A DNA stretch of 64,000 nucleotides, from contig OZ219918.1 in assembly GCA_964291415.2 (NCBI GenBank), positions 448,001 to 512,000 of the forward strand. The letters are read 5' to 3'. The number at the start of each line of letters is the position of its first letter. Within the stretch, counting starts at the first letter, position 1. Position numbers and translations under genes: made by a program. Shown piece by piece: positions 14,986 to 30,985 of this stretch. The notes under the pieces were generated by a model that saw only the letters and a list, made by a program, of their open reading frames with translations, ran no database searches and was not told the origin of the DNA. This DNA is from Alphaproteobacteria bacterium. Lineage in GTDB: Bacteria > Pseudomonadota > Alphaproteobacteria > SP197.

Positions 14986-17002
14986 GGCGCGTTCCGCTTG
15001 TTGTCATAGTGTCTATCCCGTCCGCGGCGCGGGGAATTCCGCCGGTCGCTGCCGAGTCCTCGGTGAGCGCAACAACCTTCTTGGTCGTCGAGGTCGAGAG
15101 TTCCATCCTGTAAGCGAGAAGCCAAATGAGAAGAACGCCCAGCCCCCACCATAAAAGCTGCCAGGCCCAGATGGAGGGCATCCGGAAATCCCAGCCCCCG
15201 TAGCCTGTGTCCGGCGCGCCAAACAGATAGTTGCCAATAACGATGCATGGCCCGACCGCGAAGAACAACCAAATCATCGTTGCGACCCAGGCGAAGGTGA
15301 CGAAGCGCCGCCTTCGCGCGGAGAGGCCGGCGTACTCCGCCAGGAAGCGGTGAATGCGGTAGCGACCCTCTGCACCGTCATCATCGCGTGTCAGGACCGA
15401 ACCAAGAATGCAGACAAGAAGATTGGCGACGAGACCCCAGGCAGCGGCATGGATGGTCCAGGGCCATTGACCCCAGGGCAGTGTGCCGCGAGTGAGCGCC
15501 TGTCCCAGCGGATCGGTCAGAACTACGACAATGGAGCCCACCACAATGCCGGCCGCAACGCCTTGCCGGGTGAACCAGCGGACCCACGCGACGCCCAGCA
15601 GCGCGGGCCAGAGCTGCACAGCGAGCGCCAGAGCCAGCCCGCCGAGCACGACCATGCCGTCGCGCTCGAGAGTTGCCATGAGAAGCGCGGCGACCGTGGC
15701 CAGCAGAGTCGCCACCCGGGCGAAGCGTTTCTGGAGCCGATCGTCGGCATGGGGATTGAAAAAGCGCATGTAGAGATCACGGGTGACGAGTGCGCCGGCA
15801 CTCGCCATGTAGGCGCCGCCTGCGGCCTTGATTGCGGCGATCATGCATACGGTCACGATGCCGAGAAGCCAGGGAGCAGACGCGCCGACAAGGTCGATCA
15901 GGTTCGCGACCAGCCTACCCTCCTCGCCGTTGTCGAGCGGTGGAAGAACGCGTTTCAGTTCCAGGCCTGCGGCGTTGACCTCCGGACTCGCACCTAGCAA
16001 AAGCCCGCCGAGACCCTGCAGTGTGACGAAAACGAAGAGAAGCACTCCCGCCGCACATGCCGACGCCCAGACCTGCTGCGGTGCGAAGGCGCCAGGATCC
16101 CGGCTGGCGAAGGCCCACATGGAGAACGCCGGTGATGCCTGGATGCCCATCAGGGCGACCATGAAGCTCATCACCATGAGACTGGTCCAGGGACCTCCCT
16201 GGGGCACCTCCTTGTTGAGCCCGTCGCTCCATTGCACCACGCCAGGTGTGGCGAACAACCCGTTGAAGTCGCCACCGCCATAGCCCAGTGTCGTTCCCCA
16301 TGGGCCTGTGGGTGTGCTTGCGATCACAGCCAAAGCCCTGTTGAGCGGGTCGAATCCGCCCACGAGATCAAGCGTCACAAGCCCCAGGATGCTGACGCCG
16401 ACAGCGATCAGCAGAGTTTGCAGTGTCGTGACGTACGCCACGGCTCGAAGTCCGCCGAGCGTCACGTAGATGACCAGGACGACGGCAAGGGTCCACATTG
16501 CCAAGTCGCGCGAGAGCAGGCCACCGGTTACGAGACTTATGAGGCCCCCTGCGAAGCCGAACAGCATACCGAGAAACGGGACGGCAAACAGAAGGGCGAC
16601 GATGACTGTGAACACACGGATGATATCGGAGCCGTAGTAGGCCGCGAACATCTCGCCTGGTGTGACGAAACCAAATCGCTTGCCGAGTATCCACTGCCGC
16701 TTGAGGAAGATCACCCCCGTCAGCGGCACGACGACAGCAGCGAATGCGATGTAGCCTGCCTGAAGGCCATCGCGCAGAATTAACGCGGGTCCGCCGATGA
16801 AGAGCCACCCGGCGAACGAGGTCGCCGTGGCCGCCATGACGAAAACCCAGGTGTTGAGACTGCGCCCGGCGACGAAGTAGGCGCTGGCAGTCTTGGCCTC
16901 GCGCGCACCCCTGACTCCCCAGAAAACGCAGTAGCTCCAATAAAGCACGGCGAAGAGGCCAAGCCAAAGCAGTCTCGACCCGTAGAGGCCGCCGTCGGTC
17001 AC
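14972..17002 (-). CDS. sodium:solute symporter (SSS) family transporter
   Basis: YFVAGRSL..W, ATSFAGW.FIGGP, GFVTPGE, YVTLGGLRAVAY; many TMs; start overlaps the LacI stop. Confidence 0.9.
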   Translation of the reverse strand: MTDGGLYGSRLLWLGLFAVLYWSYCVFWGVRGAREAKTASAYFVAGRSLNTWVFVMAATATSFAGWLFIGGPALILRDGLQAGYIAFAAVVVPLTGVIFLKRQWILGKRFGFVTPGEMFAAYYGSDIIRVFTVIVALLFAVPFLGMLFGFAGGLISLVTGGLLSRDLAMWTLAVVLVIYVTLGGLRAVAYVTTLQTLLIAVGVSILGLVTLDLVGGFDPLNRALAVIASTPTGPWGTTLGYGGGDFNGLFATPGVVQWSDGLNKEVPQGGPWTSLMVMSFMVALMGIQASPAFSMWAFASRDPGAFAPQQVWASACAAGVLLFVFVTLQGLGGLLLGASPEVNAAGLELKRVLPPLDNGEEGRLVANLIDLVGASAPWLLGIVTVCMIAAIKAAGGAYMASAGALVTRDLYMRFFNPHADDRLQKRFARVATLLATVAALLMATLERDGMVVLGGLALALAVQLWPALLGVAWVRWFTRQGVAAGIVVGSIVVVLTDPLGQALTRGTLPWGQWPWTIHAAAWGLVANLLVCILGSVLTRDDDGAEGRYRIHRFLAEYAGLSARRRRFVTFAWVATMIWLFFAVGPCIVIGNYLFGAPDTGYGGWDFRMPSIWAWQLLWWGLGVLLIWLLAYRMELSTSTTKKVVALTEDSAATGGIPRAADGIDTMTTSGTRHGPT

Positions 17003-18051
17003 CGGACCATCGCCCCCGCACGCCGGTCGCGATGCGTGTTGCGCGGGATCATTTCGCCTGCAATAGAGCGGTGAACAGGTGCCATGTCGGGATTGTCGTC
17101 GATTTCGCGGATCAACCTTACGGTCTCGGCCGCCATCCGCCGCATCGGATGACGATAGGTGGTCAGCGCATGGGAAGGCCAGCCAGCCATGGCAACGTCA
17201 TCGAATCCGACGACGGAGATGTCACGGGGTACGTCGCGCTTCAGTCCGTGACGCAGTGCATCAACTGTGCCAAAGGCGACGATGTCGTTGGCGCAGAATA
17301 TTGCGTCCAGATCGGGGACGGCGCGGATCAGGCGACAGGCCGCTGCATATCCGTCCTCGTAGGAGAACACCTCGGGAAGGTTGTCCCTGACGATCGTGAG
17401 GCCCGCCTCCGCGCAGCGCTCGACGAAGCCGCTGCCGCGGTCGATCGAGGTTGTCGCGTCGGGCGTACCGGCAATGTAGGCCATGTTGCGGTGGCCGGTT
17501 TCGATGAGGAACTCGGCGATCTCGCGACCGCCCCGCCTGTTGTCGCAGGTCACCGCAAAGGTCTCGGTTTCGGGAATATAGCGGTTGAAGAAGATCAGGT
17601 TGGTTCCGGTATCGATTGTCGCCATGGTGCGCTGGAACGAGACTGTTGCGGTCATGAGGATGATGTACTCGGGCTGATACAGCATGCCCTGTGGCAGCAC
17701 CTCGTCGGTCGTCTTTCCCTCGGGGACGTGAAACAGCATGACTCGGAGGCCGTGTTTTTGAAGTTCGCCGGTCAGGATCGCCATGACCTCTGGAAAGAAC
17801 GGGTTGAAGACGTCCGAGATGAAGATGCTGACGATGCGGGTCTTCTGGGTGATCAGGCTTCGAGCGAAGGGGTTGGGCTGGTATCCCATCGCCTTGGCGC
17901 GTGCGAGGATACGGTCGCGAGTATCCGGGGCGATCTGAGAGTCGGGCGAGAACGCACGCGAGACTGTCGAAATCGACACACCGAGTTCCTCGGCGACGTG
18001 CCGCGCCGCTACCGTCCTGCCGGCTGACTTTGGTTTTCCGGTATTGTCCAT
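16999..18051 (-). CDS. LacI-family transcriptional regulator
   Basis: HTH VAEELGVSISTVSRA, hinge YQPNPFARSL, FCANDIVA, ISVVGFDD. Confidence 0.95.
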   Translation of the reverse strand: MDNTGKPKSAGRTVAARHVAEELGVSISTVSRAFSPDSQIAPDTRDRILARAKAMGYQPNPFARSLITQKTRIVSIFISDVFNPFFPEVMAILTGELQKHGLRVMLFHVPEGKTTDEVLPQGMLYQPEYIILMTATVSFQRTMATIDTGTNLIFFNRYIPETETFAVTCDNRRGGREIAEFLIETGHRNMAYIAGTPDATTSIDRGSGFVERCAEAGLTIVRDNLPEVFSYEDGYAAACRLIRAVPDLDAIFCANDIVAFGTVDALRHGLKRDVPRDISVVGFDDVAMAGWPSHALTTYRHPMRRMAAETVRLIREIDDNPDMAPVHRSIAGEMIPRNTHRDRRAGAMVR

Positions 18052-18369: not shown

Positions 18370-19542
18370 GTGACACAACTAACGAGAACCGCGGCCGCAC
18401 TGGCCGTCAGTCTGAGTGTCGGGACGGGTGCCGCATTGGCGGAAGGTCTCGACGAATTGCCGGAAGAGATAGTCGCCCGGACCTACAGCTCGGAAATGAT
18501 CGATCCGGCCCAGCCGGTCGAGGCAAGTATCTACCGTGACTGGAAATCACCAAGCGAACCGCCCTGGACGATCGGTTACGCCAGTTCCTATGCCGGTAAC
18601 ACCTGGCGGGCGGCCGTCATGGATCGGCTGATCCAGAGCATTCTGCCCAAGTGGCAGGAACTGGGATTGGTGGACGACGTCTTTGTCACCCAGTCCAACC
18701 TGAACGATTCGGTGCAGATCCAGCAGATGCGCCAGCTTGTTGATCAGGGTGTGGACGCGATCATCGTCTGCTGCTCGAACCCGACAGCACTCAATGCAAC
18801 GGTCAAGTATGCATATGAGCGAGGTGTGCCGACCTTCTCGTTCACCGGTTACCTGACATCACCCTATGCCGTGAACTCGTCAGTGAACTATCAGCTGGCC
18901 GGTTTCGAGATCGGCAAGTGGATGGCCGAAGAGGTTGGCGGTGAAGGAAGCATCCTTGTGGTCGAGGGCATTCCTGGCACTTCCGGTTCTGACTCGCAGC
19001 ACCGCGGCGTCCTGCTCGGTCTCGAGTCATACCCCGACATCGACATTGTCGGCGAGATCGCGGGCATGTGGACAGACCAGGTCGCCCAGGGTGAGGTTCA
19101 GAAGTGGTTGTCCACCAACCCTGGCCAGCTTGACGGCATCGTCGTGCAGTCGGCTGCGGAGATGGGCGTGTTGCGGGCCCTGCAACAATCGGGCCGGGAG
19201 ATGGTTCCTGTGGCGATTGGCGGCGAGCTCGGCGCCCTTTGCTACTGGCGCAAGAACCCTGGCTACATCAGCACGACCTTCCAGGTCTGGCCTCCCGGTG
19301 ATGATTTCGAGCTGATCTGGAACATCATGATGCGGACGCTTCAGGGTCAGGGCCCGAGGGTGCAGTCAATTCTCGTGGATCCATTCGAGTTCACTTATTC
19401 GGATCTCGAGGGTGTCCTCGACGAGAACTGCGACGAGAACTCCCAGCTGTGGCTCGAGGTCGGGCCTGCGGCCTGGGGTGCCGAAGACTATCTCGACCAG
19501 TTCTTCCTGCGTCCCGCAGATCCGACCCAGTACCAGCCCTGA
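18370..19542 (+). CDS. sugar-type ABC transporter substrate-binding protein (RbsB-like)
   Basis: Signal peptide (ALA-E), GNTWR, QIQQMRQLVDQGVDAII, EGIPG; GGGAGG SD before GTG. Confidence 0.9.
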   Translation: MTQLTRTAAALAVSLSVGTGAALAEGLDELPEEIVARTYSSEMIDPAQPVEASIYRDWKSPSEPPWTIGYASSYAGNTWRAAVMDRLIQSILPKWQELGLVDDVFVTQSNLNDSVQIQQMRQLVDQGVDAIIVCCSNPTALNATVKYAYERGVPTFSFTGYLTSPYAVNSSVNYQLAGFEIGKWMAEEVGGEGSILVVEGIPGTSGSDSQHRGVLLGLESYPDIDIVGEIAGMWTDQVAQGEVQKWLSTNPGQLDGIVVQSAAEMGVLRALQQSGREMVPVAIGGELGALCYWRKNPGYISTTFQVWPPGDDFELIWNIMMRTLQGQGPRVQSILVDPFEFTYSDLEGVLDENCDENSQLWLEVGPAAWGAEDYLDQFFLRPADPTQYQP

Positions 19543-19584: not shown

Positions 19585-21402
19585 ATGCCTTCCGAAGAAA
19601 CCGTGAGTTCCCAACAGGAGCTCCCCGGCGCCGCCGACCAGATGTCGGCGGCGCCGGCTTTCGTCGATGCGGATATTGTTGTGACCAATGTGCACAAGAC
19701 GTTCGGCGTCACGCGCGCGCTCGACGGAGTTTCCTTCAGTGCACGATGCGGCGAGATTCACGCTATCGTGGGTGGCAACGGTTGCGGCAAATCAACTCTG
19801 GCCAAGGTCATTTCGGGCGTCCTTCCCATCGACAGCGGTCAGGTGTCGGTTCTGGGACATGCACCCGGCAGCCCGCGCGAAGCGCGTCTGGCAGGCATCG
19901 CGACGGTCTTCCAGGAAGTTCTGGTGGCTGACCATCTGACGGTGCTCGACAATCTGTATGTCGGCGCTGACGGTCTCTGGTCCAAATCCCTGTCGTTCCG
20001 CGAAAAGTATGCAAGGGGCGAAGCCTTGATGCGTGACCTCAGCGGGGTTGATATCGACCCTGACGAGATCGTCGGTGGCTTGTCGCTGTCGATCAAGCAG
20101 TGGATCACCATCGGCCGCGCATTGATACAGGAACCCCGCGTCCTCATCCTCGATGAGTCCTCTGCAGCCCTCGATTTCGATTCGACCGAGAAGCTCTTCG
20201 AGAAGATGCGCGAACTGCGCGACAAGGGCGCCGCCGTGCTCATCGTGACCCATCGCATTGCCGAGCTGATTCGCGTATCCGACCGCGCCACGGTGCTGCG
20301 TGACGGGCGCGACGTTGGTGTACTGGCCAAGGAGGAAGTGACCGAACAGAACCTCTTGGGCCTGATGACCGGGAGGAGCCAGTCCACCGAGAGCGACGCC
20401 ACCAACTCGGTGGCGCCGGCCCGCGACGACACCGTGATGAGTGTACGTGGGCTCAAGGTTTGGGAAGGCAGCAAGGGTATCGACTTCGATCTCCACCGTG
20501 GCGAGGTGGTGGGTGTCGCCGGACTCGACGGGCAGGGCCAGGATGAGTTCGTGCGCGTGCTCGCCGGCGTCCAGCCCGCACTCGAAGGCGTACCCCTGGT
20601 GCGCAGTGGGCCCGGCAATCTGGCCGAGCTTCACGGACTTGAGGACGCTGATCGATTCCGTGTCGCCTACGTCTCGGGCGATCGCAAGCAGGAGGGAATC
20701 TTCCCCAACCTCTCGGTTTTCGAGAACCTTGCAATCGCGCTCTATCCCAGGGAACTGAAGACGCGCTTCGGCAATGTTATCGACTGGCCTTCACTGGCCA
20801 GCGTGTTCGAAAACTGGCGCCAGAAGCTCTCCATCAAGATCGGTTTGGCGTCCGACAAGGTCACATCGCTGTCGGGCGGCAATCAGCAGAAGGTGCTGAT
20901 CGGTCGCGCGATGGCCCTCAACCCGAGAATCCTTGTGCTCAACGACCCGGCGCGCGGCATCGACGTTGAGGCCAAGCGCGAACTTTATGATCATCTGCGC
21001 GACTTTGCCGCCCGAGGCGAATCCGTGGTCTTCATGTCGAGCGAACTTGAGGAGTTCATTGGACTTTGCACGCGCGTGATCGTGTTCCGTCATGGCGAGA
21101 TCTTCGACGCGTTCGCTGGCGACGACATCGAGCCGGCGCGCCTCCTCGAGGCCATGTTCGGCCAGACCTCCGGTCGTGGGGCCCGCCTTGCCGCGGGCGC
21201 GGATTCGGGACCAGCCGTTGTGGACAGTGATCCTGTGCCAGAGTCCGAGCGGGAAGCGCCGCGCAGGCAACATCGACCTCGGCCAGATGCAATCCGGATC
21301 ATTGACTTCGATGCCGAACGCAGGGAGCACCGCAGTCAGGGTGCAGTGGACACTCGGCAACCTGCGGAAAAGCGCATGAAGATAGTCTATTCGGACGGCT
21401 GA
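19585..21402 (+). CDS. CUT2 sugar ABC ATPase (two NBDs) with a disordered, motif-bearing C-terminal tail
   Basis: Walker A GGNGCGKS, ILDES, VTH; second NBD GLDGQGQ, LSGGNQQK, LNDP; about 80 extra residues after LLEAMFG; start uncertain (19585/19642). Confidence 0.9.
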   Translation: MPSEETVSSQQELPGAADQMSAAPAFVDADIVVTNVHKTFGVTRALDGVSFSARCGEIHAIVGGNGCGKSTLAKVISGVLPIDSGQVSVLGHAPGSPREARLAGIATVFQEVLVADHLTVLDNLYVGADGLWSKSLSFREKYARGEALMRDLSGVDIDPDEIVGGLSLSIKQWITIGRALIQEPRVLILDESSAALDFDSTEKLFEKMRELRDKGAAVLIVTHRIAELIRVSDRATVLRDGRDVGVLAKEEVTEQNLLGLMTGRSQSTESDATNSVAPARDDTVMSVRGLKVWEGSKGIDFDLHRGEVVGVAGLDGQGQDEFVRVLAGVQPALEGVPLVRSGPGNLAELHGLEDADRFRVAYVSGDRKQEGIFPNLSVFENLAIALYPRELKTRFGNVIDWPSLASVFENWRQKLSIKIGLASDKVTSLSGGNQQKVLIGRAMALNPRILVLNDPARGIDVEAKRELYDHLRDFAARGESVVFMSSELEEFIGLCTRVIVFRHGEIFDAFAGDDIEPARLLEAMFGQTSGRGARLAAGADSGPAVVDSDPVPESEREAPRRQHRPRPDAIRIIDFDAERREHRSQGAVDTRQPAEKRMKIVYSDG

Positions 21403-21413
21403 GGGCGGGAGCG

Positions 21414-21821: not shown

Positions 21822-24044
21822 ATGAGCGAAACCGACGTCAGACGTCCGTCCTCGTCGGCCCATTCGTTTCTCATGGTGCCGATCATTCTGCTGTTCGTGC
21901 TGATCGTGGTCGCCGTACTCAGAAGTCCCAGTCTGGTAACGGGGCCGGGTCTGGGCAGCGCTGTCATTGTCGCTGCGCCGCTGATCCTGGCGACCTACGC
22001 GCTGACTGTTATCGTGATGGCGGGCCGTGGCGGCGTCGATCTTTCGATAGGACCGCTCATCGGTTTCATCAACGTCACCATGATTCAGCTTCATGCGGTC
22101 GGGGTCGTGACGTCGGTGGTCGATGTTTTCCTGTACGCGATTGCCGTGGGCATCGCCTATCAGCTGATCATGGGACTGATCATCTGTTACGTGCGGATTC
22201 AGCCCATTATCGTGGCGCTGGCAGGCTTTCTGACACTTGCGGGGCTCAATCTCGTCATACTGCCGCGGCCAGGCGGAGTCGCACCGCAGTGGATGAGTTC
22301 CTGGGCTCTGGGCGAGTCGATCTGGACACCTGTGCTGGCGATTCTCGCCGTCGCGACTGCCGCTTGGTTCCTGTTCACGCGCACCGCCTTTTTCAACCAT
22401 CTGCGCATCATGGGCGCGGACGAGAGAACTGCCTACACAGCGGGCGTCAACATCGTCGTCGTGCGGCTGGGCGCACATGTCGTCGCGGGAGTCTATGCCG
22501 GACTTGCGGCAATCTGTTTCACGTCGTTGATCAGTTCCGGAGACCCGACTCAGGGCAGCACCTATACGCTGATGGCCGTGACAGCGCTCGTTCTGGGCGG
22601 CACGAGCCTGGCCGGCGGACGCGGCAGTATCATCGGATCGCTGTTGGGGGCGCTGAACATCTATCTCATCACCTATGTGCTCGCGACGTTCAACTTCGGC
22701 ATGGTGCAGAGCTTTGTCACCCAGCTCGCCTATGGCGTGATTCTGGTTGTTGCCTTGCTGCTCACGATTCTTCTTCCACAGATCCAGCGCGCCATGCGTT
22801 ACGTGTCGCCCTATGTCGTGTTCGCTTTCCTCGGTCTCACCGCCGCCGGAGCGATGCTCTATGCCCAGGACGTCGTGCTCGAGACCGTTGGAACGTCGCT
22901 CGCCGGGACCTCGCTGAGCGGCCAGTCGCTCAGCGGGCAGTCTCTCAGTGGAACCTCGTTGAGTGGCACGTCCCTGACGACTCAGGCCGAAGCGCCTGCC
23001 GATCCTACCGGTACACCCATCGTCGTCGCGGCGGTGGTGATCGCTGCAGCGGTTTACCTTATCTGGCTGCTTTACAGGCATCTGAATTTCGCGACCGTCG
23101 CTCTGATTGGCGTCGTTTCACTAATCGTATTGGGCTATGCGGTCCATGATGGAGGCATACCCGAGCAGCGCTCCGTGGAGATGGTCGGCAACTGGGCGAT
23201 GGAAAAGGCACAGACCCCGTTCGTACTAGGTGCCGAGAAGCCACCTGAACCGGCAGTGCAGGTGCTGTCATTCGAGGAGTCACCGCTTTTCGGTGCGGCA
23301 CTGGCGGGTGCCGGGACGCTGGTTCTCGGCACCATTCTGATCTTCACGACGGTGCCACAGATACAGCAGCGGAGGGTCGGTGAAAACTCGCTGCTTTTCA
23401 TGTCTGTCGTCGGCTTGATCATAGCCGCGGGATTGATCTACTGGCTGCAGGATGGCGCTGGAGCAAGCAAGCTGTTCGCGGGTGCGCTCGGTGCGCTGGT
23501 TGTAGGCGCCATGCTTTTCGTGGTGACGCTCCCCCGGTTCCAGGACCGCATCCGGAACATCACCATGGTGATGGTGACGCTGATTGCGCTCGTGGCGCTG
23601 ATCAGCACGTTCCTTGCAAATGTTCCGCCCCTGTCGACGAGTCCTGTGCCGCTGTTGACCGCAGCGGCTCCTGAACCTCTGGAAGCGGCCGCACTGTCAA
23701 ACGGCTTTTTCCTTGCAGTCGTACTGCTTCTTGTCGCGGGCGTGACCCTCTATCTTCTGGTGATTCCGGGCGTGCGTCGCCACGTCATGTCGAACGTGCC
23801 GCTTGGCGCAGGGATCCGTTCCTACTCCTACACCACGTTGTTTGTTTCGGTCAGCGCCACGGCCTTCGCTTGTGCGGTGCTGATGGTTGCAGGTGCGCCG
23901 TTGTGGAAAGTCGTGGTCGCCGCACTTGCCGTGCTGATAGCAACCAAGTTCGGTTACCACTTCTTGCGTGATTACCGGCGCAGGCGCCCAACCGTGCCTC
24001 GTCTCAAGACACCGCGAGCCCTTCGGGTGTCGAGGAGGGTCTGA
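21822..24044 (+). CDS. sugar ABC permease (RbsC-like core) with a ~400-aa multi-TM C-terminal extension
   Basis: GVDLSIG, IQPIIVAL, GADERTAYTAG, LGGTSLAGGRGS core, then SLSG(T/Q) repeats and many extra hydrophobic segments. Confidence 0.88.
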   Translation: MSETDVRRPSSSAHSFLMVPIILLFVLIVVAVLRSPSLVTGPGLGSAVIVAAPLILATYALTVIVMAGRGGVDLSIGPLIGFINVTMIQLHAVGVVTSVVDVFLYAIAVGIAYQLIMGLIICYVRIQPIIVALAGFLTLAGLNLVILPRPGGVAPQWMSSWALGESIWTPVLAILAVATAAWFLFTRTAFFNHLRIMGADERTAYTAGVNIVVVRLGAHVVAGVYAGLAAICFTSLISSGDPTQGSTYTLMAVTALVLGGTSLAGGRGSIIGSLLGALNIYLITYVLATFNFGMVQSFVTQLAYGVILVVALLLTILLPQIQRAMRYVSPYVVFAFLGLTAAGAMLYAQDVVLETVGTSLAGTSLSGQSLSGQSLSGTSLSGTSLTTQAEAPADPTGTPIVVAAVVIAAAVYLIWLLYRHLNFATVALIGVVSLIVLGYAVHDGGIPEQRSVEMVGNWAMEKAQTPFVLGAEKPPEPAVQVLSFEESPLFGAALAGAGTLVLGTILIFTTVPQIQQRRVGENSLLFMSVVGLIIAAGLIYWLQDGAGASKLFAGALGALVVGAMLFVVTLPRFQDRIRNITMVMVTLIALVALISTFLANVPPLSTSPVPLLTAAAPEPLEAAALSNGFFLAVVLLLVAGVTLYLLVIPGVRRHVMSNVPLGAGIRSYSYTTLFVSVSATAFACAVLMVAGAPLWKVVVAALAVLIATKFGYHFLRDYRRRRPTVPRLKTPRALRVSRRV
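22890..22979 (+). repeat. in-frame 15-bp imperfect tandem repeat encoding G(T/Q)SL(S/A) x6
   Basis: GTSLA-GTSLS-GQSLS-GQSLS-GTSLS-GTSLT with synonymous codon variation. Confidence 0.9.
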
Positions 24045-25468
24045 TGAAGCCCACACAGCACCGCTTCTACAAGTGGCTCGGGTTCCTCTTCGCGCTCCTG
24101 GTTGCCGGCGGCAGCGTGATTCTCGGAATCGTCGAGGAGATTGAAGCCCAGTACATTCTGTTCTCGGCGATCGCCACCTTCGCCATCGTGCTGTGGGCTT
24201 GGCATCACTTCTCGGTCCGCTGGGTCTACGATCTCGACGGCATGGCGCTCGATAGCATGAGCCGGGAGAATCGGGGATCGTCGGAAGAGCCGTCCGAAGT
24301 GCCGCATCACGAGCAAAGCACGGGCCGCTACGTGCGATTCCTCGCGCTCGAATACAAGCACATCATCATCGGTTTCCTGATTTTGCTTGGGTTGTTCCTG
24401 ATTGTCGCCTTCTCGGTGGAGGATTTCTGGACCTGGAACAACATCATCGCTTCTGTCGTCGTGGCGGTGTTCATCGGCATCGCCTTCATGCTCAATCGAA
24501 CGGTCTCCGAGAACTCGTCAGCCTTCATCGGCGTCACGGTCCTGCTTGGTCTTTTCATTGTCGGCTCGCTTGTCGTCGACGGCTTCTTCTCGGCGATCAA
24601 CATCAAGTCAATGCTGGTCTTTGCATCCTTTCTCGGGCTTGCATGCGTCGGTCAGACACTTGTTGTCCTGCTGGGTGGGCTGGATCTCTCGATTCCCTTC
24701 GTCATCGGTTCAGCCAACGTAGCGTTGCTCTATCTCCTGGGGCTCGGCGTGCCGTCCTGGTTCGCGGTGATCGCGATCCTGATCCTCGGGGCCATCATCG
24801 GGGTCATCAACGGCCTCCTCAGTTTTCGACTGCAGGGCCAGGCACTGATCGTCACGCTCGGTGTGGGCTTTGCGGTCGCAGGTGGCACGCAGATTCTGAC
24901 AAGCATCGGTACACGCTATTCGGGCAACGTCTTCGGCGTGGTGCCCGAGTGGCTCACCAATATCGCAGCGATGAATGGACGCACCTTCGGGCTCGACTTT
25001 CCGCCGGTGATCGTGATCTGGATCGCTGCGGCAATCTTGCTCACCATCGCGATGCGCAACACGGTCTTTGGGCGCAGGCTCTATGCGCTGGGTGGCAGCC
25101 GCAGAGCGGCCAGGCGTCTATCGATCTCGGAGCGCAATTACTGGATTGCGGTCTACGGAGCATCGGGCTGCATCGCGGCGATGACTGGAGCCCTGCTGCT
25201 GGGCTGGTCGGGTGGCGGCTTCATCGGTGTCGGGGATCCTTACCTCTTCATGACACTTGCTGCTGTGGTGATTGGTGGCACCTCGCTCCTGGGCGGCTGG
25301 GGCGGTTATGGCTTCACCGTAATCGGTGTGCTCGTACTGCAGGTGCTGTCGTCCTTTCTGGTCGGCATCGGCCTGTCCTTCGAGGGCCAGCAGTTCGTTT
25401 TCGGCCTGCTGATCCTGCCCATGGTCGCCATGTATGCCCGCTCGCCGCACATTCGAACACAGATCTGA
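24044..25468 (+). CDS. second sugar ABC permease with an N-terminal extension
   Basis: GQTLVVLLGGLDLS, GRRLYALG, AAVVIGGTSLLGG; about 160-aa extra N-terminus. Confidence 0.9.
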   Translation: MKPTQHRFYKWLGFLFALLVAGGSVILGIVEEIEAQYILFSAIATFAIVLWAWHHFSVRWVYDLDGMALDSMSRENRGSSEEPSEVPHHEQSTGRYVRFLALEYKHIIIGFLILLGLFLIVAFSVEDFWTWNNIIASVVVAVFIGIAFMLNRTVSENSSAFIGVTVLLGLFIVGSLVVDGFFSAINIKSMLVFASFLGLACVGQTLVVLLGGLDLSIPFVIGSANVALLYLLGLGVPSWFAVIAILILGAIIGVINGLLSFRLQGQALIVTLGVGFAVAGGTQILTSIGTRYSGNVFGVVPEWLTNIAAMNGRTFGLDFPPVIVIWIAAAILLTIAMRNTVFGRRLYALGGSRRAARRLSISERNYWIAVYGASGCIAAMTGALLLGWSGGGFIGVGDPYLFMTLAAVVIGGTSLLGGWGGYGFTVIGVLVLQVLSSFLVGIGLSFEGQQFVFGLLILPMVAMYARSPHIRTQI

Positions 25469-25513
25469 ACGAGGCAGGTATGACATCAGGACGCCCTATC
25501 GAGGAACGACACC

Positions 25514-26236
25514 ATGAGTGAGATGCTGCAACCAAATGACATCGTCGGCATGTCATTCTGGCTCATGACCCTCGCCATGGCGGGTGCGGCAGCATTCTTC
25601 CTGCTGGAGCGTCGTCGCGTGGAGCGCCGCTGGCAGGCGGCGCTGACCACGCTCGGCGTCGCCATGCTGGTCTCGGCACTGAGCTATGTGAATCTCGCGG
25701 GCGTCTGGGCAGGCAAGGGCGAAGTGTCGACGATTTACCGTTTCGCCGAGTGGCAGCTGACGGTGCCGCTCCTTACAGTGACCTTCTACCTGGTGCTGTG
25801 TGCGGTGACGAAGGTTCCAGCAGCATTGTTCTGGCGCCTTCTGGTGGCCTCGGGTGTACTCACGGCTGCGGGTTACCTCGGTTCGGCGGGCTTCGTCAGC
25901 CCAACACTGGGCTTCCTCGTTGCGCTCGCCGGCGGTCTCTACATCCTGGGCGAAATCTACCTTGGCGAGGCGGGAAGGCTCAATGCCAACAGCGGCAATC
26001 AGAAGGCCCAGACCGCGTTCAGCGCGATGCGCCTTATCGCAACCATCGGCTGGGCGATCTATCCGCTGGGCTACTTCATGGAGTACCTGGGCGGCGGCGT
26101 CGACAATGAAGCGATCAATCTGATCTACAACCTCGCTGATTTTCTCAACAAGCTCGCATTTGGCCTCATCGTCTGGCAGGCCGCGGCGAACGACAGGGAA
26201 GCGGACGGAAATCGCTCGCCGCTGTCAGGCGCATGA
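25514..26236 (+). CDS. proteorhodopsin-like microbial rhodopsin, flotillin-associated type, ETT motif
   Basis: Seven hydrophobic segments; VGMSFW, helix C YRFAEWQLTVPLLTVTFY, helix F GWAIYPLGY, helix G IYNLADFLNK with retinal Lys213. Confidence 0.93.
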   Translation: MSEMLQPNDIVGMSFWLMTLAMAGAAAFFLLERRRVERRWQAALTTLGVAMLVSALSYVNLAGVWAGKGEVSTIYRFAEWQLTVPLLTVTFYLVLCAVTKVPAALFWRLLVASGVLTAAGYLGSAGFVSPTLGFLVALAGGLYILGEIYLGEAGRLNANSGNQKAQTAFSAMRLIATIGWAIYPLGYFMEYLGGGVDNEAINLIYNLADFLNKLAFGLIVWQAAANDREADGNRSPLSGA

Positions 26237-26297
26237 GCGGACAAAGAAACAAGAGATCCGTGAACCGCGATGTGGGGCGCAGAAGGGGAGTTGAAGC

Positions 26298-28361
26298 ATG
26301 ACCGGAGCTGACATCATCACCACGATCCTGCTTGCAGGCATCCTGATCGCGGTCATCGTCTACCTGCTGTACTGGCTGTACCGGCGCTCGTCCAAGGAAG
26401 TCGCCTTCGTGCGCACAGGCCTGGGTGGCGAAAGGGTCGTCATAACCGGTGGTGCGCTTGTGCTGCCCATCGTCCACAACGTGACGCTGGTGGGAATGAA
26501 CACGTTGCGTCTGGAGGTCAGGCGGGACGGCGATCAGGCACTCATCACCAAGAACCGGATGCGCATTGACGTGGTGGCCGAGTTCACCGTGCGCGTGCGG
26601 TCTGACCCGGAGGCCGTGTCGTTGGCAGCCCAGACGCTGGGACGGCGATCCATGAGTGCCGATGATGTCAAGGAGGTTGTCCAGGGTCGTTTCGTTGATG
26701 CCCTTGCAAGCGTTGCCGCCCGGATGACCATGGACGACATCCAGGAGAACCGTGACGTCTACATGAAGGATGTCCGGGCAATCATCGAGGAGAGCGTGGC
26801 GCGCAACGGACTGGAAATCGAGGCCGTGTCGCTCACCGGCCTCGACCAGACCAGCATCGAACGGTTCAATCCGTCAAACGCCTTTGACGCCGAAGGTCTG
26901 ACCCGACTGACCGAACAGATCGAAACACGCAAGAAGGCCAGAAATGACATAGAACAGGACACGATGGTTGCGATTCGGTCGAAGAACCTCGAGGCCGAAG
27001 TCGAGGCGCTCGAAATTGACCGCAAGAGCGAATACGCGCGGCTCGAACAGGAACGCGAGGTCGCAAAGCAGCGGGCTTTGGAGAAAGCACAGATCACGAT
27101 GGAACGGGCTGCCCGGGACCGGGAGGCTCAAGAGGCGGAGATTCGCGCCGAAGAGGAAGTCGAGATTGCCCGCATTCAGCGTGAAAAGGCCCTGGAGGCC
27201 GAGCGGTCCTTGCGTGAGACGACGCTGACGGAGGAGATCGAGGCCCGGCGCAAGCACCGCAACGACGTGGAGCGCGACACCCAGATTGCGATCCGCGCGA
27301 AGGACCGTCAGGCGGAAGTGGAGATCCTGGAGATCGAGAAGGAGATCGAATTCGCAAGGCTCGGTCAGCAAGAAGCCATTGCCGGACAGCGCGCAACGCA
27401 GATGGCCGAGATTGCCAGGCGTCAGTCGAGTGGCGAGCAGGAAGCGGAGACCGCTCGCATTGCCGCGCTGGAGGCCATTGAGCGCGCTCGCATTCTTCAG
27501 GAAAGAGCGGTGGAGTCCGAGCGCATCGCGCGCAATCAGGAAGTCGATCGCCTGGAGGTGCTGCGCCGCAAGGTTCTGCAACTCGAGGAGCAGGAGCGCG
27601 CCATTGCCATCACACGCAAGGAGAAGGACAAGGCCGAGGCGCAGGCCGAAACCGAGGAGGCCCGCGCCCGGGCCGTCGAAGCCGAGGAGAAAGTCGCCTC
27701 GGCGCGGGAGCGGGAGGCTGCTGAGCGACGCAAGCTCGTCGAACTCATCGAGGCTGCTCGTGCGGTCGAGAGCGAAGCGCTCCAGCTCACCACCATTGCC
27801 GCGGCGCAGACCAACGCAGCTGAACAGAAGGCTGCGGCCGACCGTTTCGCCACACTGTCGGAGAAGCTGCGTTACGAAGTCGATGCCGAGGGCAGGCGTG
27901 CCCTCAACGAGGCGGAGAACATCCGCACCGATGACAACCGTGAACATGCTCTGCGCATGAAGCTTCTGGAGCACATCGAGGGCATCGTGCGTGAGAGCGT
28001 CAAGCCGCTGGAGAACATCGACTCCATCAAGATCCTTCAGGTCGACGGCGTACCGGGCGTCAACAGTCCGTCGGACGTTGGCCGCGGCGGAGCCGGTTCC
28101 GGTGATCCCGCCTCTGGTGGGGGCAGCATGACCGACCGCATCGTGAATTCGGCCATGAAGTATCGCACTCAGGCGGCATTCGTAGACGGCTTGATGAAGG
28201 ACCTGGGACTGCCGATGGAGCACCTCGGCAGCGCGGGTGGCCTGTCCTTCCGCAACTTTGCTGAAGCACCTCCCGAGGATGTCGCGGACGGTAAGCCGGG
28301 TGGAGACCATACCGACGACGATAACGTCGAGGACAGCGGGCCATCAGACGACGACAAATAG
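26298..28361 (+). CDS. flotillin / SPFH (band 7) family protein
   Basis: N-terminal TM, AFVRTGLGG, LITKNRMRIDV, NAFDAEGL, long Ala/Glu coiled coil, ESVKPLENIDSIKILQV. Confidence 0.93.
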   Translation: MTGADIITTILLAGILIAVIVYLLYWLYRRSSKEVAFVRTGLGGERVVITGGALVLPIVHNVTLVGMNTLRLEVRRDGDQALITKNRMRIDVVAEFTVRVRSDPEAVSLAAQTLGRRSMSADDVKEVVQGRFVDALASVAARMTMDDIQENRDVYMKDVRAIIEESVARNGLEIEAVSLTGLDQTSIERFNPSNAFDAEGLTRLTEQIETRKKARNDIEQDTMVAIRSKNLEAEVEALEIDRKSEYARLEQEREVAKQRALEKAQITMERAARDREAQEAEIRAEEEVEIARIQREKALEAERSLRETTLTEEIEARRKHRNDVERDTQIAIRAKDRQAEVEILEIEKEIEFARLGQQEAIAGQRATQMAEIARRQSSGEQEAETARIAALEAIERARILQERAVESERIARNQEVDRLEVLRRKVLQLEEQERAIAITRKEKDKAEAQAETEEARARAVEAEEKVASAREREAAERRKLVELIEAARAVESEALQLTTIAAAQTNAAEQKAAADRFATLSEKLRYEVDAEGRRALNEAENIRTDDNREHALRMKLLEHIEGIVRESVKPLENIDSIKILQVDGVPGVNSPSDVGRGGAGSGDPASGGGSMTDRIVNSAMKYRTQAAFVDGLMKDLGLPMEHLGSAGGLSFRNFAEAPPEDVADGKPGGDHTDDDNVEDSGPSDDDK

Positions 28362-28406
28362 ACGACCAGCGCAGGCGGAACGTCACTGACTTAAGGGGAC
28401 TGGGAC

Positions 28407-28796
28407 ATGAGTATCGATGTCAACAGCTGGGCAGCCAAGTACAAGCAGCTCACCAATGCTGACGAAACCATTCAATGCATGGGAAGGTATTACACCTGTA
28501 CGTTCATGTTCGACATGGGCACACGGAAGGTCATCGTCGAAATGCACGATGGCAAGGTGAAGGGCATCAACACGAACCCGGCGCCGATGGATCCCTACGA
28601 TTTTGCCTTGCGCGCCAGTCCTGAGACCTGGCGCGAGTTTGCCCAGCCGATGCCCAAGCCAATGTATCACGGCATCTTTTCGGCGAGCTTCCAGCGTGAC
28701 CTCAAACTCGAGGGCAATTTGCTGGTGTTGATGCAGAACCTGAGGAATTTCACCGTGCAGTTCGAGTTGCTGCGCCAGTCCGGCGTCCCGGTCTAG
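28407..28796 (+). CDS. SCP2 sterol/lipid-carrier-like small protein
   Basis: DFALRASPETW and LKLEGNLLVLMQNL resemble SCP2-domain C-termini; size 129 aa. Confidence 0.6.
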   Translation: MSIDVNSWAAKYKQLTNADETIQCMGRYYTCTFMFDMGTRKVIVEMHDGKVKGINTNPAPMDPYDFALRASPETWREFAQPMPKPMYHGIFSASFQRDLKLEGNLLVLMQNLRNFTVQFELLRQSGVPV

Positions 28797-28848
28797 GCCG
28801 GTCGCCACTACGCCACGAAACACGAACGCCAAGTCGAGGGCAACAACC

Positions 28849-29700
28849 ATGGTCAAGCATTCTCCGGTCACCGGCCGCTACGTCACGATCGAAGTTGACG
28901 GCAACGAGTACAAAGTCTTCTACCTGCACAATGGCACCGGACAGCCGCTGATTTGTCAGCACACGGCGGGTGCTCACAATCATCAATGGCGTGGCCTTCT
29001 GGAGGACGAGGAGATCACCCGGGACTACAACGTGATTGCCTACGACCTGCCGCGTCACGGCAAGTCGGATCCGCCGCACAACAAGGAGTGGTGGAAAGAT
29101 GAGTACCGCCTGACGGCTGACCACTACGTCAACTTCATCGTCACGTTATGCGACGCACTTGAACTCAAGGAACCGATCTTCATGGGGTCGTCCTTCGGCG
29201 GCAACGTGGCGCTGCAGCTTGCGCTGAGGCGGCCGGACCGTTTCAAGGCGGTGATTCCCGTTGAGGCAGCCGACTATGCGCCTGGCTTCTTTCTCGATTG
29301 GTGGCGCCATCCGCACGCCAACGCCGCCCAGGTCTGCGCCTCGGGAGTGTGGGACTTGATGGCCCCGCAATCCCCGGACATGGACCGATGGCTCACTTGG
29401 CACTACTACACGCAGGGTTCGGAGGCCTTCAAAGGCGATCTCTACTTCTATTCGGTCGACCACGACCTGCGTGACGAGCTTGTCAACATCGACGGGAGGC
29501 GGTGCCCTGTCATCATGATGACGGGGACATACGATTACCTGACGCCCCCCGAGGCAACCGAGAATACCGCGCGCCAGATCAAGGGCGGCGTCTACATTGA
29601 AATGGAGGACATCGGGCATTTTCCCATGAGCGAGAATCATGAACTGTTCCGTGTCTATCTCAAGGAGGCGCTGCGCATCATCAGGGAGCGCAAAGGCTGA
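28849..29700 (+). CDS. alpha/beta-fold hydrolase
   Basis: QHTAG oxyanion region, DLPRHGKS, nucleophile GSSFGG, G.YDY, GHFP. Confidence 0.9.
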   Translation: MVKHSPVTGRYVTIEVDGNEYKVFYLHNGTGQPLICQHTAGAHNHQWRGLLEDEEITRDYNVIAYDLPRHGKSDPPHNKEWWKDEYRLTADHYVNFIVTLCDALELKEPIFMGSSFGGNVALQLALRRPDRFKAVIPVEAADYAPGFFLDWWRHPHANAAQVCASGVWDLMAPQSPDMDRWLTWHYYTQGSEAFKGDLYFYSVDHDLRDELVNIDGRRCPVIMMTGTYDYLTPPEATENTARQIKGGVYIEMEDIGHFPMSENHELFRVYLKEALRIIRERKG

Positions 29701-30094
29701 CACATCGCCTGTACGGGCAAGGGCGCGATCGTGGATCCCGCCGTCGGTTTCCAGTCACGCGTTGACTGCGGGACTTGACGTCACGGTATCGGGCTCATTC
29801 TTGAGTTCTGGTGCGGGCGCGCTCCACGTTTCGGGCGATGAGGCAGAGTGTCGGGATGACGAAACAGACTGGAGTTGCCGCGGGGACTCAACATGATCGG
29901 CTACTTCGAGGACGGTTTTCCCGGCGCCCATGCCCAGCGGTGCCTGCTCGCCAGGTCCGGTTGACGAGAAAAACCCCGCCATTTCCTGCAGCGACGCCGT
30001 GCATTGCTGACGGTCCGGCATGGCGCCGTGGTGTCCGGCCATCGGGCGTTGCGAGCCTGGCGTCTGGCTCGATCCGACAAGACGAGGCAGTTTC

Positions 30095-30985
30095 ATGAAC
30101 GCACACGAGGGACATGTGCCGCTCTGCCAGGGAGCCGATCCGTCGCCACGCCCTTCGTGGGTCGGGATGCCGGAGGGGGCCTGCGACGCGCACATGCACA
30201 TCTTCGGGGCCCGCGCACGCTATCCGATGGTGCCGGACCGCAACTATACTCCGCCGGAAGCAACGGTCGAAGCCTACGAGGCGCTGGCCCGTGTGCTTCA
30301 CATTCGGCGAACGGTGATCGTCCAGCCCAGCGTCTACGGTGTCGACAATGCGTGCACGCTCGATGCTCTGCTGGCCCTGTCGCTTGAAGCCCGTGCCATC
30401 GTGGCAGTCGACAACAGCGTGAGCGACGCCGAGCTTCAGCGCCTGCATGCCCGAGGCGCCCGGGGCATTCGCTTCAATCTGCTGATGAGAGGCGGTATCG
30501 GGATCACGGACGCCGAATGCCTTGCCGAGCGCATCAAGGGCATGGGCTGGCATATCGAGGTGATGATGGACGTTTCCTCCGACCCGGAGCTTACCGAGCG
30601 CCTCGGCCGTCTCGGTGTGCCAGTCGTGTTCGATCACATCGGTCATATCCGACCGGGCACTCGCACTGATGATCCGGGTTTCCAGGCCATGGTCCGACTG
30701 GTGGGAGATGGGGGCGCCTGGGTCAAGCTCTCGGGTGCCTACCGCGTCACGGTCGAGGATCGGACCCCCTATGCGGATGTCGGCGCGCATGTCCGTGTCC
30801 TGCTCGAAGTCAATCCGCAACGGTGCCTCTGGGCCACCGACTGGCCGCACCCAGGCATCAACGTCCCGATGCCCAACGACGGCGCCCTGCTTGACATGCT
30901 CGGCTACTGGGCACGCGACGCAGCGCTGCGCCGTCGCATACTGGTCGACAACCCCGCTGATCTCTACGGCTTCGGAGCGCTCTAG
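30095..30985 (+). CDS. amidohydrolase_2 family, 2-pyrone-4,6-dicarboxylate lactonase (LigI)-like
   Basis: CDAHMH, VQPSVYGVDN, RGIRFN, FDHIG, WVKLSGAYR, WATDWPH. Confidence 0.85.
   Translation: MNAHEGHVPLCQGADPSPRPSWVGMPEGACDAHMHIFGARARYPMVPDRNYTPPEATVEAYEALARVLHIRRTVIVQPSVYGVDNACTLDALLALSLEARAIVAVDNSVSDAELQRLHARGARGIRFNLLMRGGIGITDAECLAERIKGMGWHIEVMMDVSSDPELTERLGRLGVPVVFDHIGHIRPGTRTDDPGFQAMVRLVGDGGAWVKLSGAYRVTVEDRTPYADVGAHVRVLLEVNPQRCLWATDWPHPGINVPMPNDGALLDMLGYWARDAALRRRILVDNPADLYGFGAL

Follow-up and report, generated by a model that had tools for sequence, protein, structure and literature searches.

An open-pocket member of the flotillin-associated rhodopsin family in a large alphaproteobacterial genome

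Introduction

Flotillin-associated rhodopsins (FArhodopsins, FARs) were defined as a family by Haro-Moreno et al. (2023) and abound in the ocean. The motifs described for them are DTT, DTL or DNI. Their gene cluster has been described as including a sterol-binding-domain protein and a sodium symporter, and the same source cites a DTE-Q to DTT-T change that abolished function in a proteorhodopsin (PMC10308929). The sole member studied so far, PsFAR of Pseudothioglobus (PDB 9r21), does not accept retinal, and mutagenesis has traced the block to H84 and E120 (Kovalev et al., 2025, preprint). The engineered H84V/E120G protein (PsFAR-DM, PDB 9r23) binds all-trans retinal with absorption at 498 nm and has a long-lived 375 nm state; its photochemistry is slow and near-bistable, and it transports no protons. 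The same preprint describes Ser54 as a FAR-specific stabiliser of the unbound lysine, the residue being Ala in proteorhodopsins, and it states that in all FARs a His or Phe at position 84 takes up the polyene site. Proteorhodopsin hosts that lack retinal pathways are known, and scavenging of retinal has been proposed for them.

Here we analyse an opsin gene in a 64,000-nucleotide stretch of DNA (the window; contig OZ219918.1 of assembly GCA_964291415.2) from an alphaproteobacterium of the SP197 lineage. A preliminary description of the window had seen an opsin with an E-T-T motif and an altered ring pocket, had inferred that it does not pump, and had brought in FArhodopsins only as a comparison. 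The protein is itself a member of that family and belongs to a distinct subclade, which we call 'open-pocket', in which the residues that block retinal in PsFAR are replaced.

Results

The opsin gene and its product

The reading frame matches Pfam Bac_rhodopsin with 111 bits (E 6.6e-32), its ATG is preceded at 8 nt by GAGGA, and comparison with four relatives gives dN/dS values of 0.06-0.18. This is a genuine gene under purifying selection. An AlphaFold2 model (pLDDT 89) has seven helices and finds PsFAR (9r21) as its best Foldseek match (TM 0.90); the proteorhodopsin pumps Med12 BPR (4jq6), GPR (7b03) and PsPR (9r22) share the fold at TM 0.86-0.89. The best sequence matches in the PDB are 9r23 (E 1.4e-81) and 9r21 (8e-80), the best proteorhodopsin reaching 1e-62. 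Neither the opsin nor the SCP2-like protein encoded nearby (Table 1) matched an NCBIfam model.

Table 1. Features of the opsin locus, with positions in the window
Feature	Position	Strand	Details
Sodium:solute symporter family protein	14972..17002	-	Pfam SSF 5e-31
LacI-family regulator	16999..18051	-	Pfam; divergent from the transporter-opsin operon
Periplasmic solute-binding protein (Peripla_BP_4)	18370..19542	+	Pfam, synteny
ABC transporter ATPase	19585..21402	+	Two ABC_tran domains; Pfam, synteny
ABC permease 1 (BPD_transp_2)	21822..24044	+	740 aa; Pfam, translation, synteny
ABC permease 2 (BPD_transp_2)	24044..25468	+	474 aa; Pfam; stops 46 nt short of the opsin start
Opsin, FArhodopsin family, 'open-pocket' G141 subclade	25514..26236	+	240 aa, 7-TM; Pfam PF01036
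Flotillin	26298..28361	+	687 aa; Pfam Flot 1.9e-31, Band_7 8e-14
Small SCP2-like (sterol/lipid carrier-like) protein	28407..28796	+	129 aa; Pfam SCP2 E 0.0067, below cut-off
Alpha/beta-fold hydrolase	28849..29700	+	283 aa; Pfam Abhydrolase_1 1.4e-22
Amidohydrolase_2 protein	30020..30985	+	Pfam; sub-threshold in NCBIfam: 4-sulfomuconolactone hydrolase

Residues are numbered from a phmmer alignment to PsFAR (9r21/9r23), which runs ungapped from 2-230 to 2-230, and from MAFFT tables. On this basis the key residues are S54, S57, R76, F77, E79, W80, T83, V84, L87 and T90 in the first half of the protein and L116, G120, F134, A137, G141, W180, Y183, P184, D209 and K213 in the second; every residue named in the preliminary description proved correct. 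The same columns in 12 DTE-type proteorhodopsin representatives have H/N57, D79, T83, E90, M116 and W/Y141. The opsin thus has E-T-T where the pumps have D-T-E, Ser in place of the His75 partner, Leu for the helix-D Met and Gly for the helix-E Trp. The pumps further differ in A54, in usually having an N-terminal signal sequence, and in having no flotillin linkage. PsFAR is 53% identical, has an equally short N-terminus and shares S54, R76, W80, T83, F134, W180, Y183, P184, D209 and K213. The differences between the two are H84 to V, E120 to G, W141 to G, Y77 to F and D79 to E; position 90, Thr in the opsin, is likewise non-carboxylic in PsFAR (Leu in the alignment tables, Met according to the preprint).

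The E-T-T motif had been taken as distinctive, and a literature search for an 'ETT motif' in rhodopsins gave no match. Glu occurs at position 79 in 6 of 121 aligned sequences, with at least three independent origins, and Asp and Glu alternate there among relatives that are 93-95% identical: P0001 and L006 (94-95% identity) have Asp, and the nearest relatives read DTT. Judged from these alignments, E79 is a minor, recurrent and conservative D/E variant.

Placement within the FArhodopsin family

In a quick IQ-TREE analysis of 118 rows, the opsin falls in a clade of 67 rows (SH-aLRT 95), the G141 subclade. Its sister is a 28-row clade with the Pseudothioglobus- and HIMB59-type FARs (support 99), and both lie, apart from the DTE pumps, inside a 97-row group whose joint FAR node has moderate support (SH-aLRT 86). 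The opsin is a FArhodopsin-family member because a flotillin gene follows it, as in 80/80 related loci; the branching and a non-DTE motif without a carboxylic donor (E79-T83-T90) are those of FARs as well. The signature of the subclade is V/A84, G/A120 and G141 in 67/67 rows, with position 84 being V in 46, A in 16, L in 3, I in 1 and T in 1. Its hosts are large-genome bacteria and in part sponge-associated; a literature search for flotillin-linked rhodopsins in sponge symbionts gave no match. The subclade has already been sampled in print, since in the part of Table S4 of Haro-Moreno et al. (2023) available to us the row Canadian Lakes 3300037189-C1150277 carries the subclade signatures RFADWQLTVPLL and LAGGLYILGE, with Arg at the lysine site. 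Most freshwater FArhodopsins in that part of the table are far more divergent: they have G/A/L at the D79 site, R120 and W141, and Q/T/L/V/R where the lysine would be. The opsin keeps its lysine, and its host lineage is marine or sponge-associated.

The retinal pocket

At the two positions most informative about the pocket, which the preliminary description had passed over, the opsin has V84 and G120. These are the residues of PsFAR-DM, that is, the proteorhodopsin state: the aromatic residue of FARs at 84 is absent, and so is a bulky residue at the ring site (E120, or W137 in HIMB59), where the opsin has G120 and A137. Together with F134 and the pocket residues of helices C, F and G, V84 and G120 are common to the opsin and the proteorhodopsin pumps, and outside G141, L116 and F77 every pocket residue is that of proteorhodopsin. 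The altered ring pocket described earlier is, at positions 84 and 120, in the proteorhodopsin state and does not form the FAR-type block. PsFAR-DM is artificial, has no donor either, and is the sole experimental proxy for the opsin, from which it differs in W141, Y77, D79 and Q87 (here G141, F77, E79 and L87). The FAR-type S54 is present in the opsin and in 59/67 subclade rows and is Ala in 12/12 DTE pumps.

A reading of G141 as the helix-E 'fenestration' glycine of carotenoid-antenna rhodopsins (Gly156 in xanthorhodopsin) was ruled out: the xanthorhodopsin Gly column corresponds to F134 here, and four xanthorhodopsin-like representatives have Gly at column 134. In the available part of Table S4, likewise, the Gly of the xanthorhodopsin LWGFL stretch aligns with a proteorhodopsin Phe, and the G141 column with a xanthorhodopsin Phe.

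At position 213 the 67 subclade rows have K (51 rows), R (12) or V (4), and at least seven K/non-K changes map onto the subclade tree. The pocket columns are equally conserved with and without the lysine (mean entropy 0.56 in the 16 lysine-less rows against 0.60 in the 51 lysine-bearing ones). W80, G141, W180, Y183, P184, Y187 and D209 are alike in both sets, with the exception of one lysine-bearing E209.

Host genome and retinal supply

The host genome (4.44 Mb, 64.5-66% GC, estimated completeness 100%) is high in GC and non-streamlined, as had been suggested, unlike the PsFAR host of ~1.3 Mb. Its single PF01036 match means that there is no second rhodopsin. A single rhodopsin is likewise found in 22/24 other subclade genomes and in 8/8 large genomes with blocked-type FARs. 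The proteorhodopsin paralogue expected of a FAR in the same streamlined genome is absent here. The lack of blh/crt genes first seen in the window extends to the whole genome, which has no Pfam BCD (blh) match, no CrtI above cut-off and no full-length lycopene cyclase; a pathway leading to beta-carotene or retinal is not recognisable in it. Across the subclade, blh was found in 0/25 genomes and CrtI above cut-off in 2/25, both lysine-less; as positive controls, blh was recovered beside crtI and crtY in two HIMB59-type genomes with proteorhodopsin.

An oxygenase of the RPE65/carotenoid-cleavage family is encoded in 19/25 subclade genomes against 1/12 other FAR genomes and, within the subclade, in 18/21 lysine-bearing against 1/4 lysine-less genomes (uncorrected Fisher p 2e-4 and 0.03, the counts being confounded by relatedness). 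It has no NCBIfam equivalog match (165-294 bits against cut-offs of 650-800), and the host's own gene is split by a frameshift. Two SQS_PSY matches in the genome are HpnD, beside HpnE and dxs, and HpnC; despite these, a hopanoid link was set aside, as no squalene-hopene cyclase C-domain was found.

The flotillin and the gene cluster

The flotillin gene, overlooked in the preliminary description, begins 61 nt after the opsin stop, and no terminator-like site was found in this gap; the two co-oriented genes are almost certainly co-transcribed. Its product has an N-terminal TM helix, an SPFH/Band_7 domain, a long coiled coil and a Flot C-terminal domain, and the TM segment shows almost no variation among homologues. 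The order of opsin and flotillin directly downstream on the same strand is that of PsFAR and of all the related loci. An SCP2-like gene follows the flotillin in 73/80 loci (71-97% identity), and no other gene of the cluster is as well conserved as the hydrolase, found in 74/80 (82-99% over ~280 aa); its conservation extends to HIMB59-type loci, where the opsin is 51% identical. The SCP2-like protein has no PDB sequence match at E 0.01, and the hydrolase has none at E 1e-10 and sub-threshold matches only in NCBIfam.

Upstream, a homologue of permease 2 directly precedes the opsin in most loci, and permease 1 is extended by a lengthy additional membrane region and carries an SLSGQ/SLSGT repeat. 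The LacI-family regulator occupies the same place in alphaproteobacterial loci, and homologues of the symporter lie near FAR clusters at varying positions (tblastn matches in many loci). The locus thus has the inner-membrane translocators, sterol-carrier-like protein, alpha/beta hydrolase and sodium symporter of FAR clusters. The Thioglobus locus differs from most related loci in its weak, displaced permease matches and in having no SCP2-like or hydrolase gene. The Amidohydrolase_2 gene, with tblastn matches only in the four nearest relatives (L006-L009), is probably outside the core cluster.

Prediction of a complex between the opsin and flotillin residues 1-200 scored 0.00, which is no answer and carries no weight either way. 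Of the contigs from a sponge metatranscriptome run (X8), two map with at least 99% similarity to the flotillin gene, at 27137-27395 and at 27750-27984, and the opsin has none; the RNA library possibly contains DNA, and transcription of the opsin is neither supported nor excluded by them.

Discussion

The opsin is almost certainly not a proton pump because T90 replaces the carboxylic donor, S57 replaces the His and PsFAR-DM transports no protons, which agrees with the non-pumping protein first proposed. For its function, we give about an even chance to an open-pocket FArhodopsin with a flotillin-linked core role in which retinal is not needed. That the core role is independent of retinal is probable on four counts: the FAR-type S54 is kept; the lysine has changed repeatedly and pocket conservation is the same without it; blh is missing throughout the subclade genomes and CrtI is confined to two lysine-less ones; and Asp and Glu alternate at position 79 among close relatives. 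Light sensing by means of scavenged retinal may still occur.

In such a role the opsin, like PsFAR, would form an oligomeric 7-TM membrane body that acts with the flotillin scaffold in a membrane microdomain; the transporter, lipid carrier and hydrolase encoded alongside would probably be further partners. Covalent retinal would not be required. The main part of K213 may be that of a buried cation which pairs with E79 and D209 and is kept in place by S54, as it is in PsFAR without retinal. Since V84, G120, A137 and G141 leave the pocket without filling side chains, it would be in one of three states in vivo: closed by an inward shift of helix E, filled by a non-covalent hydrophobic molecule, or filled by retinal when this is available.

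Other observations count against a retinal-independent role. The opsin lacks the retinal blockers and retains K213, D209, W80, W180, Y183 and P184; within the subclade, P0012 combines A54 with E90, a pump-like state; the oxygenase is enriched; and proteorhodopsin hosts without a pathway may scavenge retinal. They suggest an alternative that is possible, if rather doubtful, namely that the opsin is a naturally retinal-competent FAR. All-trans retinal, scavenged or made by the oxygenase from host or dietary carotenoids, would be bound at K213 with E79 as counterion, and with a slow, near-bistable photocycle, in the absence of a donor, the protein would switch the flotillin microdomain or the transporter in response to light rather than pump. 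The residues shared with PsFAR-DM, and a pocket that is otherwise nearly that of proteorhodopsin, argue for this reading, as do the lysine kept in about three quarters of the subclade rows and the bias of the oxygenase towards the subclade and its lysine-bearing genomes. Against it stand the missing blh, CrtI and CrtY, an oxygenase that falls below every NCBIfam equivalog cut-off and is frameshifted in this host, the relatedness that confounds its counts, the repeated lysine changes with undiminished pocket conservation, the retention of S54, and G141, which removes the ring-flanking Trp of proteorhodopsins and PsFAR-DM. The wider proposal that the whole G141 subclade consists of natural, light-switchable and near-bistable flotillin partners that use scavenged or oxygenase-made retinal, evolutionary intermediates between pumps and the retinal-less marine FARs, is somewhat unlikely.

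A structural role, or the binding of another ligand, is plausible. As a sub-case of the retinal-independent role, the opsin fold may be a receptor or holder of a non-covalent hydrophobic ligand (a fatty acid, an isoprenoid or another lipid), delivered or processed by the SCP2-like carrier and the hydrolase. In proteorhodopsin without retinal, decanoate occupies the pocket, and helices E and F leave an opening between them. The pocket (V84, G/A120, A/S137 and G141, the last in every row) is conserved whatever the residue at the lysine site, and the carrier and hydrolase genes are the most conserved of the cluster. None of the FARs has a known ligand, however, and in PsFAR the pocket is taken up by side chains and water. 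The two glycines at 140-141 could just as well let helix E pack inward and close the site, and the Pfam match behind the SCP2 assignment lies below the cut-off. We regard this more specific reading as unlikely. A working proteorhodopsin variant that pumps protons outward without a donor is very improbable: donor-less pumps exist, such as the DTG-type rhodopsins, and the counterion pair E79/D209, R76, T83 and K213 are present, but the closest proxy does not pump, the genome has no retinal pathway, S54 and the missing His75 equivalent accompany a branching with FARs rather than pumps, and the DTT-T change left a proteorhodopsin without function.

In conclusion, a large sister branch of the retinal-blocked FARs naturally carries the permissive residues, in large genomes with no proteorhodopsin partner and no blh, and with the flotillin and the rest of the cluster kept. 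This removes the notion that FARs act solely through an effect on a proton pump in the same host, and it singles out the SCP2-like protein, together with a hydrolase of unusual conservation, as the likely constant core of the system. The subclade offers natural proteins in which retinal and no-retinal states can be compared without engineering, and a test case for light sensing. If it is retinal-competent, a bacterial opsin would put a membrane microdomain or a transport system under the control of light.

The opsin and its gene cluster

Among solved structures, a sequence search places the opsin closest to the FArhodopsin (flotillin-associated rhodopsin, FAR) of Pseudothioglobus, PsFAR: the engineered H84V/E120G entry 9r23 (E 1.4e-81) and PsFAR itself, 9r21 (E 7.6e-80), rank ahead of the best proteorhodopsin match, 4jq6 (E 1.1e-62). 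Foldseek is in line with this ranking (9r21, TM 0.90, 53% identity), and the AlphaFold2 model from a 28-row alignment is confident and has seven helices (pLDDT 89.0, pTM 0.84). Because the alignment to PsFAR is ungapped over residues 2-230, PsFAR numbering is used directly. Alignments and site tables bear out every residue read off in the preliminary description (S57, R76, E79, W80, T83, L87, T90, L116, G141, W180, Y183, P184, D209 and K213). The gene is under purifying selection: comparisons with four relatives at 91-95% identity give dN/dS of 0.06-0.18, and the N-terminus of the neighboring flotillin gives similar values (0.07-0.10).

That flotillin, which the preliminary description had overlooked, starts 61 nt past the opsin stop. 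Shine-Dalgarno-like sequences precede both genes, and no terminator-like site was found between them. The gene order agrees with the “FAR cluster” in the available excerpts of Haro-Moreno et al. (2023; PMC10308929).

Features of the opsin cluster and of related loci in the compared genomes
Feature	Location	Strand	Remarks
Solute-binding protein		+	upstream of opsin
ABC ATPase		+	upstream of opsin
Permease 1	21822-24044	+	upstream of opsin; BPD_transp_2; 740 aa
Permease 2		+	upstream of opsin; BPD_transp_2
Opsin	25514..26236	+	240 aa; Pfam Bac_rhodopsin E 6.6e-32
Flotillin			687 aa; Pfam Flot 1.9e-31 and SPFH/Band_7
SCP2-like protein	28407-28796		small; downstream of flotillin
Alpha/beta hydrolase	28849-29700		downstream of flotillin
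LacI regulator			divergent from opsin operon
Sodium:solute symporter			divergent from opsin operon
Squalene gene loci L002, L003	G000:C4:1624114-1627863; G000:C2:1040119-1043871		window's genome
Split oxygenase gene, L004	G000:C2:977539-981474, ~2454-2475		window's genome
Second cluster, L086	G004:C1:2494500-2501500, 1721-6073		close relative

A scan limited to a single genome for each species, using aligned relatives of the opsin as the query, recovered 80 loci, all with a flotillin homologue directly after the opsin; 73 contain the SCP2-like gene and 74 the hydrolase. One locus, on a 4-kb contig (L020), yielded no intact opsin ORF and was omitted from the protein tables. No other gene of the cluster is nearly as well conserved as those of the hydrolase (82-99% identical over ~280 aa in all 74 loci) and the SCP2-like protein (71-97%); in low-GC HIMB59-type SAGs, where identity falls to 51% for the opsin and 47% for the flotillin, the hydrolase stays within its range. 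The hydrolase has no PDB sequence match at E 1e-10 and no NCBIfam match above cut-off, and the SCP2-like protein no PDB sequence match at E 0.01 and no NCBIfam match. Permease 1 is roughly double the usual size, with a Ser/Leu/Gly/Thr/Gln repeat (SLSGQ/SLSGT units) and more hydrophobic segments after its BPD_transp_2 domain. The GC content of the cluster region (window 14000-32000) is 60-62%, against 65-67% in the flanks and 64.5-66% in the five contigs, and the opsin tree intermingles Alpha- and Gammaproteobacteria; both are compatible with horizontal spread of the cluster.

Phylogeny and hosts

The opsins recovered from the loci were aligned together with the best 120 relatives in the database and 24 representatives from farther away. 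A quick maximum-likelihood tree (118 rows after merging of sequences above 92% similarity) puts the window's opsin in a clade of 67 rows (SH-aLRT 95), here the G141 subclade, adjoining a 28-row clade (support 99) of “blocked” FARs with retinal-blocking residues. The preliminary description had used FARs as an outside comparison; the opsin does stand apart from the pumps, but it lies within the FAR group that these two clades form (SH-aLRT 86).

Characteristic residues of the opsin groups
Group	Residues
DTE pumps	A54, H/N57, Y77, D79, V84, E90, M116, G120, W141
Pseudothioglobus-type FARs	S54, H84, E120, W141
HIMB59-type FARs	N83, F84 with W137 or E120, W141
Window's group	S54, F77, D/E79, T83, V/A84, G/A120, F134, A/S/G137, G141

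In a small branch of the subclade (P0020, P0021, P0047, P0056), Val replaces the Schiff-base lysine and a Lys occupies helix-C position 87, the spectral-tuning site; K87 may thus represent a buried lysine that has moved. P0071 carries K87 as well as K213. Another member, P0012 (938-nt contig), nested in the window's 20-row subgroup, combines G141 with A54 and E90, a pump-like D-T-E state; should this protein be functional, a retinal pump could tolerate G141.

Record titles give the subclade hosts as Alphaproteobacteria MAGs of 2.8-6.1 Mb, two freshwater Hyphomicrobiales-type MAGs, Kiloniellaceae and Rhodospirillaceae (sponge bins among both taken together), Gammaproteobacteria and Ectothiorhodospiraceae. 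All marine FARs are assigned to Pelagibacterales, HIMB59 and Pseudothioglobus in the excerpts of Haro-Moreno et al. (2023). One “freshwater unknown taxon” row of their Table S4 is a lysine-less G141 member, so that the group had already been sampled, though apparently not discussed in those excerpts. Short contigs from a sponge metagenome of another study match portions of the opsin-flotillin stretch (window 24800-28400) exactly, with no differences in the opsin region, and several other public runs containing parts of the stretch are labelled sponge metagenome, which suggests a sponge-associated host.

Retinal pocket

Gly156 is the glycine that presumably serves as the carotenoid window of xanthorhodopsin. 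An equivalent role for G141 was considered and rejected: in a published alignment the xanthorhodopsin Gly column is F134 here, and xanthorhodopsin-like representatives carry Gly at column 134.

According to the available part of Kovalev et al. (2025; bioRxiv 10.1101/2025.04.29.651185), PsFAR binds no retinal because the polyene site is taken up by H84 and the ring site by E120. Binding of all-trans retinal (maximum 498 nm) returns only when both are replaced, in the mutant H84V/E120G; this mutant transports no protons, builds up a long-lived 375 nm state and is “almost bi-stable”. V84 and G120, engineered in that mutant, are native in the window's opsin, and with Ala137 the HIMB59-type Trp blocker is absent too. 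Position 141, Trp in pumps and PsFAR, is Gly in 67/67 subclade rows. By these known determinants, the pocket is predicted to be open and more spacious than that of a pump.

Genome content and retinal supply

The window's genome (4.44 Mb, 5 contigs, estimated completeness 100%, contamination 9%) holds a single rhodopsin match and no heliorhodopsin, Blh, CrtI above cut-off or full-length lycopene cyclase match, extending to the whole genome the absence of blh/crt genes first noted for the window. In a census of 37 genomes (25 of the G141 subclade, 12 with other FARs), Blh was absent from all 25 and from all 8 large genomes with blocked FARs; it was found in two HIMB59-type genomes beside proteorhodopsin, crtI and crtY, which are positive controls. 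Among the other 24 subclade genomes, 22 have FAR as their sole rhodopsin; the remaining two encode an additional FAR that lacks the lysine and is accompanied by a flotillin of its own. A second permease-opsin-flotillin cluster occurs in two close relatives (L086; L087 in G003) and is absent from the window's genome; its opsin (L086; 247 aa, 31% identity, 35 bits on Pfam) is very divergent, has Leu in place of the lysine and is similar to the “freshwater unknown taxon” FARs in the available Table S4 (PMC10308929).

Counts that ignore relatedness, and with no NCBIfam equivalog matched, place an RPE65/carotenoid-cleavage-family oxygenase in 19/25 subclade versus 1/12 other FAR genomes and, within the subclade, in 18/21 lysine-bearing versus 1/4 lysine-less genomes. 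The only such gene in the window's genome is split over two frames, which reflects a genuine frameshift or else an assembly error (indel); the two parts correspond to residues 3-373 and 381-500 of an intact homologue from genome G001.

The two SQS_PSY genes of the window's genome are HpnD and HpnC, which together with HpnE indicate a squalene pathway; HpnD and HpnE adjoin dxs, HpnC lies elsewhere, and the squalene-hopene cyclase C-domain has no match in this genome. In the excerpts of Haro-Moreno et al. (2023), squalene-type isoprenoids figure in the discussion of what bacterial flotillin microdomains are made of.

Possible roles of the opsin

Genome content, the census, lysine loss, S54 and the D/E exchange at position 79 support a conserved role independent of retinal. 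Of the 67 subclade rows, 51 have K at residue 213, 12 have R and 4 have V, with at least seven changes on the tree, and the pocket columns are equally conserved in lysine-less and lysine-bearing rows. S54, the FAR-specific partner of the unbound lysine in the available part of Kovalev et al. (2025), is present in the window's opsin, and D and E interchange at position 79 among close relatives. The opsin could then, with about equal odds for and against, be an oligomeric seven-transmembrane partner of the flotillin scaffold and perform its conserved role without a Schiff-base retinal. In that case K213 would act as a cation buried between E79 and D209, and the unfilled pocket might contain a hydrophobic molecule or be closed by helix E, which has a GG pair at 140-141.

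A less probable but serious alternative is that the opsin binds retinal and, without pumping, works on the microdomain as a slow photoswitch. The permissive V84/G120 state, the retention of K213 in most of the subclade and the pump-like A54 and E90 of P0012 point this way, as does the view, in the accessible text of Hirschi et al. (2024; PMC11322631), that proteorhodopsin hosts without the pathway scavenge retinal and that the empty pocket otherwise contains a fatty acid. The oxygenase, commoner in the subclade and in its lysine-bearing genomes, adds to this, but its distribution is uncorrected for relatedness, the enzyme matches no NCBIfam equivalog and the copy in the window's genome is split. 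A proton pump is very improbable: as the preliminary description noted, the opsin is without the pump motif, and the PsFAR mutant sharing its residues at 84 and 120 does not pump.

Conclusion

The FAR family was described in 2023 (PMC10308929) and its structure in 2025 (10.1101/2025.04.29.651185), so the finding is not categorically new. Relative to the literature covered, and as far as the available parts of these sources go, the novelty lies in the existence of a large sister branch whose pocket is unblocked by nature and whose G141 is nearly invariant, and in its occurrence as sole rhodopsin in genomes that are large, high in GC and in part sponge-associated. E-T-T likewise appears new in print as a variant, our literature search having paired no “ETT motif” with a rhodopsin, yet it is a minor D/E variant. 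The G141 subclade opens FAR function, and the question of light sensing, to direct experiment on natural proteins.
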